Source: Chthoniobacterales bacterium (lineage in GTDB: Bacteria; Verrucomicrobiota; Verrucomicrobiia; Chthoniobacterales; UBA10450). From it: 26,292 nt of DNA. Shown here piece after piece: positions 3,002-22,079 of this stretch. The notes below the pieces were generated by a model. The model had not been told where the DNA came from. It made no database searches and worked only from the letters and a program-made list of their open reading frames with translations. Position 1 is the first letter of the stretch; each line of letters begins with the position of its first letter. The position numbers and the translations under genes were made by a program. The stretch lies in NCBI GenBank assembly GCA_035459405.1, contig DATHXZ010000271.1, positions 1-26,292 of the forward strand, read 5' to 3'.

Positions 3002-3029
3002 TTGCGGGGGCTGCTTTCATTCCTATAGT
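3002..3029 (+). promoter_or_regulatory. Putative sigma70 promoter of the rpsL superoperon
   Basis: TTGCGG (3002-3007), 16-nt spacer, TATAGT (3024-3029), about 95 nt upstream of the rpsL ATG. Confidence 0.6.
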
Positions 3030-3062
3030 GCCGCTCCCCGCAGCAGGTGCGTGAGGCAAGTG

Positions 3063-3120
3063 GACGCGCCCGGTGCGTCTTTTTTGTCGCCCGATTCCAG
3101 TGGAACGGGCGGCTTTTATT
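3063..3120 (+). promoter_or_regulatory. rpsL 5' leader with two tandem hairpins, each followed by a T tract (attenuator-like)
   Basis: GACGCGC-CCG-GTGCGTC followed by TTTTTT (3063-3085), then GTCGCCCG-A-TTCC-AGT-GGAA-CGGGCGGC followed by TTTTATTT (3086-3121). Confidence 0.5.
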
Positions 3121-3124
3121 TAAA

Positions 3125-3535
3125 ATGCCAACGATCAATCAGCTCATTCGCAAAGGACGAAAGAAGATTTCGGTGAAGTCAAAATCACCGGCTCTGAAGA
3201 ATTGTCCGCAGCGACGCGGTGTGTGCACGCAGGTGATGACGCGCACGCCGAAGAAGCCGAACTCTGCGCTGCGCAAAGTGGCGAAGGTGCGGTTGACGAA
3301 CGGGCAGGAAATCATAGCCTACATACCCGGCGAAGGGCACAATCTGCAGGAGCACTCGATCGTGCTCGTGCGCGGGGGTCGCGTGAAGGATTTGCCCGGT
3401 GTGCGTTATCACATCGTGCGCGGGACACTCGACAGCCTCGGGGTTGATGGGCGCCGCCGGAGCCGTTCGAAATACGGCGCGAAACGCCCGAAAGCTGGTG
3501 CTGAGGCAGCGGCGGCGGGCAAGAAGAAGAAATAA
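3125..3535 (+). CDS. rpsL: 30S ribosomal protein S12
   Basis: [12 protein letters not shown]...CPQRRGVC...[11 protein letters not shown]...[11 protein letters not shown]. The true start is ATG 3125, not the ORF-track start at 3047. Confidence 0.99.
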
Positions 3536-7292: not shown

Positions 7293-7937
7293 ATGGCCGC
7301 AACGATTCTCACAGCAGACGCAGCGCGGAGCGCGAACATCGCACTGATTGAAGGCGGTCGCGGAACGCAGGCGGTGCACGACGTCGTCGTCGCGATGCGC
7401 GCCGCGCGTCGTTCTGGTTCGGCGAACACGAAGACAAAGGCCGAAGTCGCGCTTTCGGGTGCGAAGCCGTGGCGTCAGAAGGGCACTGGCCGCGCACGTG
7501 CGGGTTACAAGAGCTCGCCGATCTGGCGTGGCGGCGGTGTCGTGTTCGGCCCGAAGCCGCGCGACTACAGCAAGAAAGTTTCGAAGACGGTAAGGCGTCT
7601 CGCCTTTCAGAAAGCGCTGACGGAGCGCATCAACGCCGGCGACGTGCTGACGATCGATTCGTTCAACGTGCCGGAGCTGAAGACGAAGTCCTTCCTCACC
7701 CTTCTGCGCCAGCTGACGGATGCGAAGAAGGTGCTGCTGATTTCAGATTCGTTCGACGAGAACACCTACAAGGCGGCGCGCAACGTGAAGCCGGTGCTTC
7801 TCACCACGGCAGCCGACGTGAACACGGAGCAGCTGCTCGCGTTCAACAAGATTTTGGTCACGAGCCGCGCGCTCGGAATGCTGGCAAGCCGCACGCGTTC
7901 GCGCGAAGCCGCCGAGAGCAACGGAGGTGCGCAGTGA
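7293..7937 (+). CDS. rplD: 50S ribosomal protein L4
   Basis: KPWRQKGTGRARAG...WRGGGVVFGPKPRDY. Confidence 0.99.
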   Translation: MAATILTADAARSANIALIEGGRGTQAVHDVVVAMRAARRSGSANTKTKAEVALSGAKPWRQKGTGRARAGYKSSPIWRGGGVVFGPKPRDYSKKVSKTVRRLAFQKALTERINAGDVLTIDSFNVPELKTKSFLTLLRQLTDAKKVLLISDSFDENTYKAARNVKPVLLTTAADVNTEQLLAFNKILVTSRALGMLASRTRSREAAESNGGAQ

Positions 7938-9092: not shown

Positions 9093-9371
9093 ATGAGCAG
9101 ATCGCTGAAAAAAGGACCGTTCGTAGAGCCGCATCTTCTCGAGAAGATCGACAAGATGAATTCGTCCGGCGTGAAGAAGCCGATTAAGACCTGGTCGCGC
9201 CGGTCGATGGTCACGCCCGATTTCGTTGGCCACACCTTCATGGTGCACAACGGCAAAATTTTTACCTCAGTGTTCGTGACCGAGAATATGGTCGGTCATA
9301 AGCTCGGCGAATTTTCGCCGACGCGGATATTTAAGAAGCACGGTTCGCACACCGCCAAGGTGACGAAGTAG
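9093..9371 (+). CDS. rpsS: 30S ribosomal protein S19
   Basis: [11 protein letters not shown]...IKTWSRRS...VHNGK...[13 protein letters not shown]. Confidence 0.99.
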
Positions 9372-9375
9372 TGAT

Positions 9376-10224
9376 GTGAATCTCCGGTTTTCGATTGCCG
9401 ATTCTCGATTGGGCGGACTGCTGAGCCTGCAGACGAAAATCGTCATTCGAAATTCGGCGATTGTTGTATGTGCTGTGTTGCTCGCCCGAGAGGCGGCGGC
9501 ACAAGGGAATAGTTCTTTGTCAGAATCCAAAATCGAGGCCGCGGAAACGAGAGTGACTGCGGACGCGCTGTTTTCGCAGACCGAAGAACTGCGGCGGCAG
9601 CTCGCTGCACAACGCGAATCGGTTAAGACGCTGACGGAAAGTCTGGCGGCGTCGAATGCCGAGGCGGAGTTGTTTCGCCGGAAGTATTCGGACCTGCAGT
9701 TGCGCATGGAAGCGCTCGGGCTCGAGGCTGCGAACAAGGACAAGGCCAAGCTTGAGCAGCGGTTATTGAGCGCGGTGAGCGACCTGCAGTTGCTGCAGAA
9801 AGAGCGCGAGCAATATCGCGACCAGATGCTGCGGCTGACGGAAGCGATGTTGCAGTTGCTGCAAACCTCGACCGGCGGCGATGCGAAGGCGCGGGCGGAA
9901 GTGGAAGCGCAGGTGCGTAGCATGAACGCGCTCGTCTCGAAGGCAGCGGAAGTGCCGGCAGCGGCGCCAACGTTGATGGACGGCAGTGTGATCAGCGTGA
10001 AGGACGAATGGTCGCTGGTCGTGGGCAATCTCGGCGAGAAGCAGGGCCTGAAGATCGGGATGCCGTTGCGCGTGATCCGCGGCGACAAGCTGGTCGCGAC
10101 GTTGCGAGTCGTGGATGTGCGACAAAAGATCTGCGGTGCGGTGATTCAGGATTCTGGGAAAGAGAAGATAAAGGTCGGCGATCGCCTCCAGGCGGATGTC
10201 CGGCGGGATGTGAGTTTGAAATAG
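9376..10224 (+). CDS. Non-ribosomal exported protein: signal peptide, long coiled coil and C-terminal FlgT_C-like beta domain
   Basis: 282-aa ORF filling the rpsS-rplV gap. It has a hydrophobic stretch ending in AAA-QG and heptad-rich residues ~50-190. The C-terminal GSVISV...LVVGNLGEKQGLKIGMPLRVIRG...LRVVDV...IKVGDRL pattern is what I associate with FlgT C-terminal-like domains. The start is uncertain (GTG 9376 or TTG 9409). Confidence 0.8.
   Translation: MNLRFSIADSRLGGLLSLQTKIVIRNSAIVVCAVLLAREAAAQGNSSLSESKIEAAETRVTADALFSQTEELRRQLAAQRESVKTLTESLAASNAEAELFRRKYSDLQLRMEALGLEAANKDKAKLEQRLLSAVSDLQLLQKEREQYRDQMLRLTEAMLQLLQTSTGGDAKARAEVEAQVRSMNALVSKAAEVPAAAPTLMDGSVISVKDEWSLVVGNLGEKQGLKIGMPLRVIRGDKLVATLRVVDVRQKICGAVIQDSGKEKIKVGDRLQADVRRDVSLK
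9390..9458. repeat. Degenerate inverted heptamer arrays (NNCGATT x3 ... AWTCGNN x3)
   Basis: TTCGATT GCCGATT CTCGATT (9390-9410) and AATCGTC ATTCGAA ATTCGGC (9438-9458). Confidence 0.5.
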
Positions 10225-18462: not shown

Positions 18463-19235
18463 TTCCGATCAAGAGCGGGAAAGAAATCGACAAGATGCGG
18501 CTCGCGTGCCGCACGGCGAGCGAGATTCTCGAGCGCGTAAGCGATCTCGTGCGGCCGGGCATCACCACGAAGGAGGTCGACCAGGCCGCCGCGGACCTGA
18601 TGCAGGAAGCCGGCGTGAAGAGCGCGTTTCTTGGCTATCGCCTGGGCCATCGGGTGTTCCCGGGTAACATCTGCATCTCGCTGAATGACGAGATCGTTCA
18701 CGGCATCGGAAGTCAGCGGCGGATCCAATACGGCGACATCGTGAAGCTGGATATCGGCGTCATTCGTGACGGCTGGGTCGGGGATACTGCGTCGACTGTG
18801 CCAGTGGGAATGATCGACGACCGCACCGAGCAGTTGCTACGCACGACCGAAAATGCTCTGCGCGTGGCCATCGAGACAGCGTCCGAAGGGGTGCGACTCG
18901 GGGACGTTTGCGCAGCGATCGAGGCTGAAGCGGTTGCGAACCGTTTTGCCGTTGTCCGGGAGTTTGTTGGTCATGGCGTCGGACGCAAGCTGCACGAAGA
19001 ACCGCAGATCCCGAATTACGGGAAGCGTGGGAGCGGCCCGAAGTTGAAGGCCGGGATGACTCTCGCGATCGAGCCGATGATCAATGCCGGGACGGCGGCC
19101 GTCCGGCTGCTCGATGATGGCTGGACGGTTTGCACCGCCGACGGAATGCGTTCGGCACATTTTGAGCACACAGTCCTGATCACCAGGGATCAGCCGGAAA
19201 TCCTCACCGGTCGCGGCAAGCCGCAGCTGAAGTAG
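18459..19235 (+). CDS. map: Methionine aminopeptidase type I
   Basis: Metal-ligand motifs DIG...GDTA, GHGVG..LHEEP, EPM and FEHT. Confidence 0.98.
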   Translation: MIPIKSGKEIDKMRLACRTASEILERVSDLVRPGITTKEVDQAAADLMQEAGVKSAFLGYRLGHRVFPGNICISLNDEIVHGIGSQRRIQYGDIVKLDIGVIRDGWVGDTASTVPVGMIDDRTEQLLRTTENALRVAIETASEGVRLGDVCAAIEAEAVANRFAVVREFVGHGVGRKLHEEPQIPNYGKRGSGPKLKAGMTLAIEPMINAGTAAVRLLDDGWTVCTADGMRSAHFEHTVLITRDQPEILTGRGKPQLK

Positions 19236-19264
19236 TCAGCTTCGTAATCGCGTCTATTCCTGTC

Positions 19265-19292
19265 TTGCGGCACCAGAAAGTTATGTTACAGG
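19265..19292 (+). promoter_or_regulatory. Putative promoter for rpmJ-rpsM-rpsK-rpsD
   Basis: TTGCGG (19265-19270), 16-nt spacer, TG-T-TACAGG. Same -35 hexamer and spacing as the rpsL promoter, but the -10 is weak. Confidence 0.4.
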
Positions 19293-19295
19293 TTT

Positions 19296-19390
19296 CGCCC
19301 TACGATTTGTCGGAGGGGCGGATTACCTGCCCACGAGAGTGACAGACGCGGAGCTGATCTCCGCGTTTTTCGTCTGCAAATCAGCTGGTT
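19296..19390 (+). promoter_or_regulatory. Structured rpmJ leader (two hairpins, T tract, loop complementary to the translation-initiation region)
   Basis: Hairpin at 19296-19320. AGACGCGGAG-CTGAT-CTCCGCGTTT (19344-19368). AGCTGAT (19352-19358) is complementary to ATCAGCT (19380-19386). Confidence 0.5.
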
Positions 19391-19504
19391 ATGAAAGTTC
19401 GACCCTCAGTTAAGAGACTTTGTGAAGCGTGCAAGATCGTGAAGCGCAAGAACGTCGTGCGCGTGATCTGCAAAAATCCCCGCCATAAGCAGCGCCAGGG
19501 GTAG
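19391..19504 (+). CDS. rpmJ: 50S ribosomal protein L36 (Zn-ribbon type); too short for the ORF track
   Basis: Manual translation [37 protein letters not shown]-stop. Confidence 0.99.
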
Positions 19505-20680: not shown

Positions 20681-21292
20681 ATGGGCAGATACACCGGACC
20701 GAAAACCAAAGTCGCGCGTCGCTATGGCGTCCCGCTCTTTGGGCCATCGAAATCTCTCGAGCGCAAAAACTACCCGCCAGGCATGCACGGCCCGAAAGGC
20801 TCGCGTCGCAAGCAGTCGGACTATGCCGTCGCGCTCGGCGAGAAACAGAAATTGCGCTACCAGTACGGTCTGCTCGAGAAGCAGTTTCGCCGCATTTTCC
20901 AGACCGCTCTCCGTCGCCGCGGCGTCACGGGCGAAACGCTCCTGCAGCTGCTCGAGACACGCTTGGACAACGTGGTTTTCCGGCTCGGCCTAGCGAACAC
21001 GCGCAGTGCCGCTCGTCAGCTTGTTTCGCACGGCCATGTCGCCGTGAACGGCCGCGGCGTGAACATCGCCTCGTACAACGTGAAAGCAGGCGACACCGTT
21101 TCGATCAAGAACAAGCCGAAGTCACGTCAGCTTGCGGCGCGCAATCTCGAGCTCACGCAAATCGCTCCTGTTCCGGACTGGCTTATCGCCGACCGCGACG
21201 CGCTCAGCGGAAAGGTTACCCGCGTTCCTGTTCGCGACGAGATGCAGCCGATGGTCAACGAGCAGTTGATCGTCGAGCTCTACTCACGCTAG
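20681..21292 (+). CDS. rpsD: 30S ribosomal protein S4 (no Zn-binding Cys)
   Basis: MGRYTGPK...PPGMHG...EKQKLRYQYG...ETRLDNVVFRLG...ARQLVSHGH...QLIVELYSR. Confidence 0.99.
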   Translation: MGRYTGPKTKVARRYGVPLFGPSKSLERKNYPPGMHGPKGSRRKQSDYAVALGEKQKLRYQYGLLEKQFRRIFQTALRRRGVTGETLLQLLETRLDNVVFRLGLANTRSAARQLVSHGHVAVNGRGVNIASYNVKAGDTVSIKNKPKSRQLAARNLELTQIAPVPDWLIADRDALSGKVTRVPVRDEMQPMVNEQLIVELYSR

Positions 21293-21304
21293 TGCGAAGA
21301 CGCC

Positions 21305-21381
21305 TGTAGCGGCGGTCTGTGGCCGCCGATGACGGGTTGTGTATGTGTGGCGTGTTCGCCGGACATAGACCGCGGGCTACA
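21305..21381. repeat. GTAG-family REP-like inverted pair between convergent genes
   Basis: TGTAGC-GGCGGTC-TGT-GGCCGCC ... CATAGACCGCGG-GCTACA. The right arm is a near reverse complement of the left arm. Confidence 0.7.
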
Positions 21382-21382
21382 G

Positions 21383-21610
21383 CTACGCCTCGAGATATTC
21401 GAGCGCCTTTGTGTAGCTGCGCCGTTGAAGAAAGTGTCGGAGTTGTGGGTCTAATCGCGGTGCGAGGCGCTGCTCGATCGCTTCGAGCCGACCGGACACC
21501 TCCTGTAGCCGCACCATGTGCCGATCGGGATCTCGGCGGCTTTCTTCATCAGCGATGACGGTCAGGCGCTCACGGAGCGCACTCGCAAGCTCTCCCAGCT
21601 CTTCGTCCAT
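21383..21610 (-). CDS. Small helical hypothetical protein (75 aa)
   Basis: MDEELGELASALRERLTVIADEESRRDPDRHMVRLQEVS...LRHFLQRRSYTKALEYLEA. The longer track ORF overlaps the divergent regulator gene, so ATG 21610 is preferred. Confidence 0.65.
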   Translation of the reverse strand: MDEELGELASALRERLTVIADEESRRDPDRHMVRLQEVSGRLEAIEQRLAPRLDPQLRHFLQRRSYTKALEYLEA

Positions 21611-21656
21611 CGGAAAAGCTTGAAACGCCCGGCGCTTTTGCGCAAGCGTCGAAGCC

Positions 21657-22079
21657 GTGGCTGGCGCAGACGCACTTAAACGAATCCTCGTCGTCGATGA
21701 CGATGTAACGCTGATGCGCGTCACGCGCGAGGCGCTTACGTCGCTCCTGCGGTGCGAAGTCGACACGTCACCGAAGCCCGAATACGGATTCGAGCTGATG
21801 CTGAAACGCAGCTACGACCTGCTGATCTTCGACTTCTCGATGCCGATGATCGACGGTGCGATGCTGTTCCTGCTGATCGGCAAAGTTTACACTAATGCGC
21901 AACCGCCGCGGGCGGTCCCGCCGTTGTTGTTGATCTCCGGCAGAGGAGATGAAGAACGCGCGCAGGAACTCCTGCGCGAGCCGGGAGTGAGTGGGTTGAT
22001 CCCGAAGCCATTCACGATCAACCGCCTTATCGAGCGGGTGAAGGAATGCGTGCCTGGGATTGAGAGTGTCGGCGCGTAG
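21657..22079 (+). CDS. Single-domain response regulator (CheY-like receiver)
   Basis: RILVVDDD, phosphoacceptor LLIFD-FSMP, ISG and the PKPF lysine motif; no output domain. Confidence 0.9.
   Translation: MAGADALKRILVVDDDVTLMRVTREALTSLLRCEVDTSPKPEYGFELMLKRSYDLLIFDFSMPMIDGAMLFLLIGKVYTNAQPPRAVPPLLLISGRGDEERAQELLREPGVSGLIPKPFTINRLIERVKECVPGIESVGA

Follow-up and report, generated by a model that had tools for sequence, protein, structure and literature searches.

The region upstream of rpsL in a soil Chthoniobacterales genome is, as judged from conservation and covariation, a real, conserved and lineage-specific leader RNA, carrying an element that resembles an intrinsic terminator. It would most likely act as a factor-dependent transcription attenuator. 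A similar-looking stretch before rpmJ, further along the same gene cluster, turns out to be a relic of infA followed by the old terminator of that gene; sequence comparison therefore indicates that the two leaders are not one family, and that their likeness is one of general design (promoter, hairpin, T-run) and not of common descent.

Locus and gene order

The window, i.e. the whole stretch of 26,292 nucleotides analysed here, is contig C271 of a metagenome-assembled genome (G000; 3.1 Mb, 62% GC, 82% complete) of a soil member of the Chthoniobacterales (Verrucomicrobiota). Pfam matches and the ORF map define a packed series of genes, rpsL-rpsG-fusA-rpsJ-rplC-rplD and onward to secY-adk-map, with map ending at 19235; after a gap of 155 nt, a downstream unit, rpmJ-rpsM-rpsK-rpsD, ends at 21292. 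This order makes the two transcription units assumed in a first-pass annotation of the sequence reasonable. A 209-codon ORF (2232-2861), located 5' of the rpsL promoter, gave no Pfam match. On the 3' side of rpsD (21293-22079), rpoA and rplQ are absent, the next recognisable gene encodes a response-regulator receiver domain (21657-22079), and the 'alpha' unit of the window is reduced to the rpmJ-rpsD series. The features discussed below are collected in Table 1.

Table 1. Features of the rpsL leader, of the rpmJ junction and of the genes that they precede, in window coordinates
Feature	Position	Strand	Basis and remarks
rpsL-unit promoter: -35-like hexamer 3002-3007, 16-nt spacer, -10 TATAGT 3024-3029	3002..3029	+	sequence
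GC-rich discriminator and initial transcribed region, CTCCCCGCA	3030..3042	+	invariant in genus; putative transcription start
Terminator hairpin, long register 3039-3077 (outer CGCA/TGCG and inner 7-bp stem, -18.9 kcal/mol)	3039..3079	+	fold
Terminator hairpin, short register, 7 bp	3063-3079	+	fold
U6 tract of the rpsL-leader terminator	3080..3085	+	sequence; 39 nt 5' of ATG
Second hairpin (P3), 12 pairs, one bulge	3086..3113	+	fold; 5' arm GTCGCC adjoins the U tract; GTCGC 3086-3090
U/A-rich unstructured tail to start codon, no clear Shine-Dalgarno	3114..3124	+	sequence, fold
rpsL (S12), first gene of the str-S10-spc unit	3125..3535	+	Pfam, ORF map
rplD, same packed unit as rpsL	7293-7937		Pfam, ORF map
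infA 3'-end relic, ancestral stop TGA 19340-19342	19238..19342	+	translation ends ..KVMLQVSPYDLSEGRIT..*
Promoter-like site: -35-like 19265-19270, TG 19284-19285, TACAGG 19287-19292	19265..19292	+	sequence; putative promoter
Hairpin H1, 6 bp, in former infA coding sequence	19316..19332	+	fold
Hairpin H2, 8 bp, loop CTGAT, and T5	19346..19370	+	stem 19346-19353/19359-19366, T5 19366-19370, CGTC 19371-19374
rpmJ (L36), first gene of rpmJ-rpsM-rpsK-rpsD	19391..19504	+	Pfam

Structure of the rpsL leader

The rpsL leader is about 90 nt long, its terminator hairpin starting almost at the 5' end, and an A/T-rich stretch lies directly 5' of its promoter. By RNA folding, the two registers of the hairpin both end at the U6 tract, and a generic terminator scan called 3062-3080 as terminator-like. 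The second 12-bp hairpin reported in the first-pass annotation is present, with one bulge among its 12 pairs; the base of its stem is invariant in the genus and the apex varies, with compensating changes. The T tract that was said to end 4 nt before the start codon, TTTTATTT at 3114-3121, directly follows this hairpin and actually ends 3 nt before the ATG at 3125.

Conservation and covariation

Sequences upstream of rpsL were collected from 19 members of the genus, from 15 further genera of the family and from 64 genomes spread over the other 15 families of the order, families being designated f1, f2 and so on; four unpublished genomes (G001, G009, G161 and G177) contributed to no alignment, model or count. 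Within the genus, conservation runs from just 5' of the -35 to the ATG. Across the order the same series of parts recurs: CTTGCN, 17 nt, TAnnnT, the TCCCGC motif, one or two hairpins, T5-T8, GTC with a C-rich P3 arm, an A/U-rich tail and the ATG. The CTTGCN-N17-TAnnnT promoter was found in most families. A hairpin of -6 kcal/mol or below, abutting a run of at least five T residues, occurs no more than 110 nt from the rpsL ATG in 65 of the 98 genomes, against 7 of 98 in a control zone located 150-280 nt upstream; when weaker hairpins are admitted, 74 of the 98 are positive within the last 110 nt. The element is found in about 11 of the 16 families, with stem sequences unrelated from one family to another, and the T-run (T5-T8) mostly stands 34-47 nt from the ATG. 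It was not found in f3, f4, f14 and f15, and f2 yielded one doubtful case only; with five families lacking it, the element must be dispensable.

Two layouts can be distinguished. In layout A (f1, f5, f7, f8), there is a single long terminator stem, whose outer strand is formed by the conserved 5' CCGC; in layout B (f9, f10, f11, f13, f16), the terminator stem is short and is preceded by a separate small 5' hairpin. In f1, f5 and f7, a small hairpin near the 5' end is in competition with the long stem for its 5' arm; in all five layout B families, the 5' hairpin is independent of the terminator. An antiterminator conserved across families was not found and, since hairpin and terminator are independent in half of the families, a classical switch is unsupported.

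Trained on genus members only, the covariance model R1 recognises leaders of other families with E-values down to 1e-29; a broader model (R2) was also used. In an alignment of 49 leaders, 87.2% of the cells form standard pairs, compared to 72.2% after shuffling and 36-45% when partners are slid, all 22 pairs show changes on both sides (9-16 when slid), the cells with double changes are 121 (21-49 when slid), and none of 500 shuffles reached the observed pairing values, these pair statistics being inflated because the alignment (A6) was fitted to the model and contains related sequences. The terminator hairpin corresponds to helices 1 and 2 of this analysis. Helix 3, the P3 hairpin, is 89.6% paired, with double changes in 8 of 8 pairs across the order. 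G-U pairs are frequent, which argues for RNA pairing and not for a DNA palindrome. A plain MAFFT alignment followed by RNAalifold, family-wide, aligned the variable hairpins poorly and recovered the structure in part; model-based alignment was needed.

The R2 model gives one significant match per genome in the five genomes scanned and, under stricter filters, no match in about 120 genomes from other orders of the class. A generic genome-wide repeat was considered and rejected because of this single significant copy. Among the Rfam 15 covariance models, none matched the window at gathering thresholds; no r-protein leader came near its threshold at rpsL, and the best sub-threshold match reached 25 bits, against a gathering value of 112, for an unrelated small RNA. 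At the rpmJ junction there were no Rfam 15 matches at all, the S4 leader included. Rfam holds two rpsL leader families, rpsL_psuedo and rpsL_ricks, which reportedly go back to the 2010 work of Naville and Gautheret. Conservation across the order, covariation and the lack of an Rfam match together bear out the first-pass view of the rpsL leader as lineage-specific and endowed with a terminator-like element.

An rRNA-type promoter

The -10 and the following bases of the rpsL promoter match the 16S rRNA promoter of relatives, and the rrn leaders of four relatives share with the rpsL leader the -10 box, the TCCCGC after it and the 5' hairpin. Three tandem rRNA-type promoters, about 120 nt apart, lie on the minus strand of contig C565 of G000 (about 2230-2560); each has TTGACG, 17 nt, TAnnnT, then TCCCGC and a small hairpin, and they are probably the leader of an unassembled rRNA or tRNA operon. 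As the 5' hairpin and the CCCGC motif are also found at rRNA-type promoters, their conservation belongs to the promoter and not to the leader. On this comparison a promoter class accounts for the first dozen conserved bases together with the small 5' hairpin; we infer this class to be probably that of growth-rate-controlled promoters. Specific to the r-protein leader are its terminator, U run and second hairpin.

A boxA with Nus antitermination was also considered for the leader, and rejected: the boxA of the lineage (GATCTTTGACAGTG, from the rrn leaders of four relatives) is absent from it. The U-rich tail of the rpsL leader shares CTTTG alone with the rrn boxA in some genera, and nothing in other families.

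The rpmJ junction

The gap between map and rpmJ contains the remains of infA. At this locus the gene has lost its N-terminal two thirds, the remaining frame ends in the IF-1 C-terminal motif, and 19263-19373 is 84% identical, at the DNA level, to the 3' third of intact infA and the downstream hairpin of sister genera. Of 20 other genera in the family, 14 have an intact infA of 72 codons at this place, with map and rpmJ on either side. Two full-length infA genes are found elsewhere in G000 (C478:10714-10899, minus strand; C489:262-453, plus strand).

The promoter-like site of the relic has a -10 without the customary final T; where infA is intact, the site coincides with the codons for LPGDKVMLE. 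At invariant residues of the intact genes, synonymous-site conservation is 0.85 at codons 45-63 and 0.74 in the N-terminal part. The gene has decayed independently in the genus of the window, in two more genera of its family and in f5, f8 and f12, and the same segment is kept in all of them. Its retention through independent decays, together with the synonymous conservation, points to an internal promoter of the rpmJ unit. The arms of hairpin H1 change together among relatives, in intact infA and in relics alike; in the intact genes (L222-L241, GRITFR codons), pairing is kept through compensating changes, both synonymous and non-synonymous.

A hairpin with a T-run is found just 5' of rpmJ in 35 of 41 family members and, where infA is intact, it starts within a few nucleotides of the infA stop. 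It also occurs in f5, f7 and f8, with other stem sequences; in f10, f13 and f16 infA abuts rpmJ, with no terminator between the two. By its position in these relatives, H2 with its T5 is an ancestral terminator-like element of the infA-rpmJ boundary, older than the loss of infA. A pseudoknot between loop and downstream sequence, over the rpmJ start, was rejected: the pairing exists in the window and is not kept in most genus members. The junction offers a case of how a decaying gene may be partly kept as carrier of a promoter and a terminator for its neighbours, and a warning that a promoter-hairpin-T-run series is not always one RNA family.

Genome-wide occurrence of similar elements

A composite promoter pattern drawn from the two leaders matches nothing but these two sites, whether the window is searched, where shuffles predict 0, or the whole 3.1-Mb assembly; the pattern reversed, as a control, matches three times in the genome. 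It was rejected as evidence: it had been defined after the fact, from its own two sites, and the control matches as well. Terminator-like sites of the genome, counted on both strands, amount to 158 hairpins with T5, 36 with at least T6 and about 13 with a stem of at least 7 pairs; such sites being rare, the presence of two of them in the only two sizeable gaps of the 17-kb r-protein cluster is not due to chance. A GTC after the T-run was examined as a possible genome-wide terminator signature and rejected, since GT is common after strong terminators and GTC is not enriched.

A genome-wide search for a promoter-like site followed by a terminator and an ORF gave six sites, of which those before rpsL and nusA are convincing. 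The latter lies on contig C294 of G000, at about 9330-9436 (locus L252, about 1030-1137), before a gene with a NusA N-terminal domain, and consists of a promoter-like site, an 8-bp hairpin and T5, then CGTCTGC. It is not recognised by the rpsL-leader model and, from its sequence, looks like a classical autoregulatory nusA leader terminator.

Proposed mechanism

In the reading that we favour, and hold to be rather more probable than the others taken together, the rpsL terminator attenuates transcription of the str-S10-spc unit under the control of a protein, and the rpmJ junction is a place of partial termination and restart. The transcription start, the termination and the regulator of the rpsL leader are those that we infer from the elements described. 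A strong rRNA-type promoter, suggested by the A/T-rich upstream stretch, the -10 and the discriminator shared with 16S rRNA promoters, would start the leader of about 90 nt. The first 45 nt or so would fold into the GC-rich hairpin that, with the U6, would make an intrinsic terminator about 40 nt before the S12 start codon; the second conserved hairpin and an open, U/A-rich landing region for the ribosome would follow. Part of the polymerases would stop at the U tract, and the fraction reading through would set the transcription of the str-S10-spc unit, about 30 genes. With no antiterminator conserved in all families, control by a trans-acting protein is most likely; such a protein may change the efficiency of termination, much as L4 does with NusA at the E. 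coli S10 leader, and the candidates are NusA itself and three r-proteins encoded in the unit, L4, S7 and S12.

At the other junction, infA formerly stood between map and rpmJ, its first two thirds having been lost in the genus of the window. The remaining third, with its embedded promoter-like site and its own hairpin and T5, would end part of the upstream transcripts, and the junction probably restarts transcription for rpmJ-rpsM-rpsK-rpsD.

Two metatranscriptome contigs, from one study and a close relative, bridge 3044/3055 into rpsL, and speak at most of read-through, not of termination. The four RNA runs consist of contigs, and most of the cover is due to the conserved rpsL coding sequence of other organisms; contig cover stops at 3008 on the upstream side, and its lack beyond that point is uninformative.

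Alternative explanations

The hairpin and U tract might instead be a constitutive 5' element of the mRNA: a stabilising stem-loop, a U-rich strand cut by an RNase so as to leave the second hairpin as a protective 5' end, or a fixed 'governor' that lowers the output of a very strong promoter. The hairpin does begin few nucleotides from the putative transcription start, a similar 5' hairpin is present on transcripts from rRNA-type promoters, and the missing conserved antiterminator fits as well. RNase E-type sites, moreover, usually look like a U tract between two stable stems, and the rpsL tract resembles one by analogy. Yet a perfect U6-U8 abutting a GC stem, kept across families with unrelated sequences, is not needed for stability; such sites are rare elsewhere in the genome, and distant phyla, too, have premature terminators ahead of rpsL (PMC2965389). 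We hold a constitutive element to be unlikely on balance. A far weaker case can be made for an independent small RNA gene of about 50 nt, comprising the stretch from promoter to terminator, with rpsL transcribed by read-through or from elsewhere. The stretch is indeed bounded by promoter-like and terminator-like sites, and weak sub-threshold small-RNA matches in cmscan are what stretches of this kind tend to give; but it always stands at a fixed distance before rpsL (or rplD in f9) and never elsewhere in the genome, the second hairpin fills the space where the next promoter could lie before the ATG, and the RNA contigs bridge the terminator into rpsL, which is weak evidence. Such a gene appears very improbable.

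The first-pass annotation had proposed that both leaders form one lineage-specific attenuator or r-protein-responsive family, which would coordinate the two operons; the common binder could be one r-protein or another factor, e.g. NusA. Its motifs were confirmed at their positions in both leaders, and the general order of parts is alike at rpsL and rpmJ. Further likenesses exist: in f5, f7 and f8 both junctions carry a hairpin, T7 and GTC with a pyrimidine-rich stretch; the rpsL model gives 21 bits to the rpmJ junction of one f8 genome (G140), its sole such match, with most of the score coming from the U run and the GUC after it; the rpsL-type leader is used twice in f9; and the 12 letters that follow the nusA terminator, TTTTTCGTCTGC, recur at rpmJ, the seven after the T-run (CGTCTGC) included. 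The common family nevertheless fails on several points. Neither R1 nor R2 matches 19265-19390, the rpmJ junctions of 13 genus members or those of 20 other family members; the rpmJ junction derives from infA, and its hairpin already stood behind the intact gene; the shared GACGCG/YGCGT letters occur in no more than three close genomes, that of the window included, and the rpsL hairpin is a different one in most genus members; f10, f13 and f16, which have two-hairpin rpsL leaders, lack a terminator between infA and rpmJ; and the GTC after the T-run is not a rule of the genome, GT being common there, so that the likeness is partly generic. What stands of the proposal is a leader heading more than one r-protein unit, in f9, where it is copied before rplD; for rpsL and rpmJ of the window's genome it does not hold, and a single family for the two appears distinctly more doubtful than a constitutive element.

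Comparison with known systems

Premature terminators before rpsL are among the most widespread attenuators, and have been described as a 'multiform' leader whose structures have nothing in common and whose ligand is unproven, S7 having been suggested (Naville and Gautheret 2010, PMC2965389). Earlier predictions of rpsL leaders are those of Merino and Yanofsky (2005), as cited in PMC2965389. If read as an attenuator, the leader described here falls into this class, and is most likely its Chthoniobacterales-specific form. As in the class, a Rho-independent terminator would stand between the promoter and the rpsL start codon, at the head of the str operon: the leader lies directly 5' of rpsL and 3' of a promoter-like site, recognised by its similarity to rrn promoters, and has a GC-rich hairpin and T6 39 nt before the ATG. 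Conservation within a lineage, with nothing shared between phyla, is a further common trait. The present leader differs in belonging to a new lineage with no Rfam match, in being very short (about 90 nt) with its terminator hairpin at the very 5' end, in having a conserved second hairpin after the U tract and no antiterminator common to all families, and in that it would gate a fused str-S10-spc unit and is duplicated before rplD in one family. A later survey of 20 new r-protein leaders reported none for S12 and none for Verrucomicrobia (PMC7247131).

Three other systems invite comparison. The E. coli S10 leader is subject to L4- and NusA-dependent attenuation at hairpin HE and the U tract that follows. 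There, too, a terminator hairpin lies tens of nucleotides before the first start codon of an operon containing rplD, an upstream helper hairpin is present, and an antiterminator is not needed if a protein tunes termination; here, rplD belongs to the rpsL unit, and in one genus of f9 (g36) the leader lies directly before it. The two leaders share no sequence or model similarity, however; the first gene is rpsL here and rpsJ there, and the f9 splits tie the terminator to rplD inconsistently. The rpmJ junction may be set beside the spc-alpha junction of E. coli and B. subtilis; the leader of the E. coli alpha operon is a pseudoknot bound by S4. Common to both is a boundary between a secY unit and a rpsM-rpsK-rpsD unit that encodes S4, with partial termination and a fresh promoter, both of them predicted for the window; the boundary of the window differs in being built from a decayed infA, in giving no Rfam match to the S4 leader and in having no rpoA and rplQ after rpsD. 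Finally, terminators in the leader of the nusA operon (rimP-nusA-infB) are autoregulated by NusA, and the only other clear promoter-terminator-gene arrangement of the genome precedes nusA. The nusA leader heads a different gene, and the rpsL-leader model does not recognise it. The rpsL and nusA elements of the genome fit the two most widespread attenuators of the PMC2965389 survey, which also covers the rimP leader.

The kind of element is already known, and the gain is an incremental one. With its length of about 90 nt, the Chthoniobacterales rpsL leader is compact; it covaries strongly and has well-defined structural variants, and these features, together with the copy before rplD in f9, make binding and termination assays with few candidate proteins straightforward. 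To our knowledge, little has been described of the control of r-protein operons outside Proteobacteria and Firmicutes.

The split S10 operon of family f9

A natural experiment is provided by f9, in which the S10 operon is split and the leader copied before rplD. In five genomes of this family (G061, G073, G084, G093 and G109), rpsL-rpsG-fusA, rpsJ-rplC and rplD-rplW-rplB onward are found at separate loci, rplC and rplD lying on different long contigs in all five. The rplD unit has its own promoter, 5' hairpin, terminator, U7 and second hairpin, and its leader scores 27-30 bits with R2 in genus g36 and 18.8 bits in g44. The three genera are not alike: in g36, the leader stands directly before rplD, and that of rpsL has no U run (8.5 bits); g44 has the full leader at both the rpsL and the rplD units; g41 has the terminator leader at rpsL alone. 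An argument for L4 as the ligand, drawn from these splits, was rejected since the three genera disagree, and the splits, having no single direction, do not indicate any one ligand.

That the leader was copied at an operon break marks it as a portable module, which fits control, at the level of transcription, of whatever follows downstream. An extension of this idea would see the terminator, the U run and the GUC/C-rich hairpin as a portable operator recognised by a single trans-acting factor, be it NusA or an r-protein such as L4, and gating rpsL everywhere, the rplD unit in f9 and, in degenerate form, the infA/rpmJ junction in f1, f5, f7 and f8. We regard this as speculative and rather improbable; if true, ribosome synthesis would be under an attenuation regulon run by one factor, through a ligand-RNA pair so far undescribed.

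Between the copied leader and rplD, the f9 genomes contain a small upstream ORF of about 25 codons (L255:366-443, and likewise in L257, L259 and L256), which ends 2-10 nt before the rplD ATG. Its position is kept in five genomes and its sequence poorly; it could be a coupling frame or a relic.
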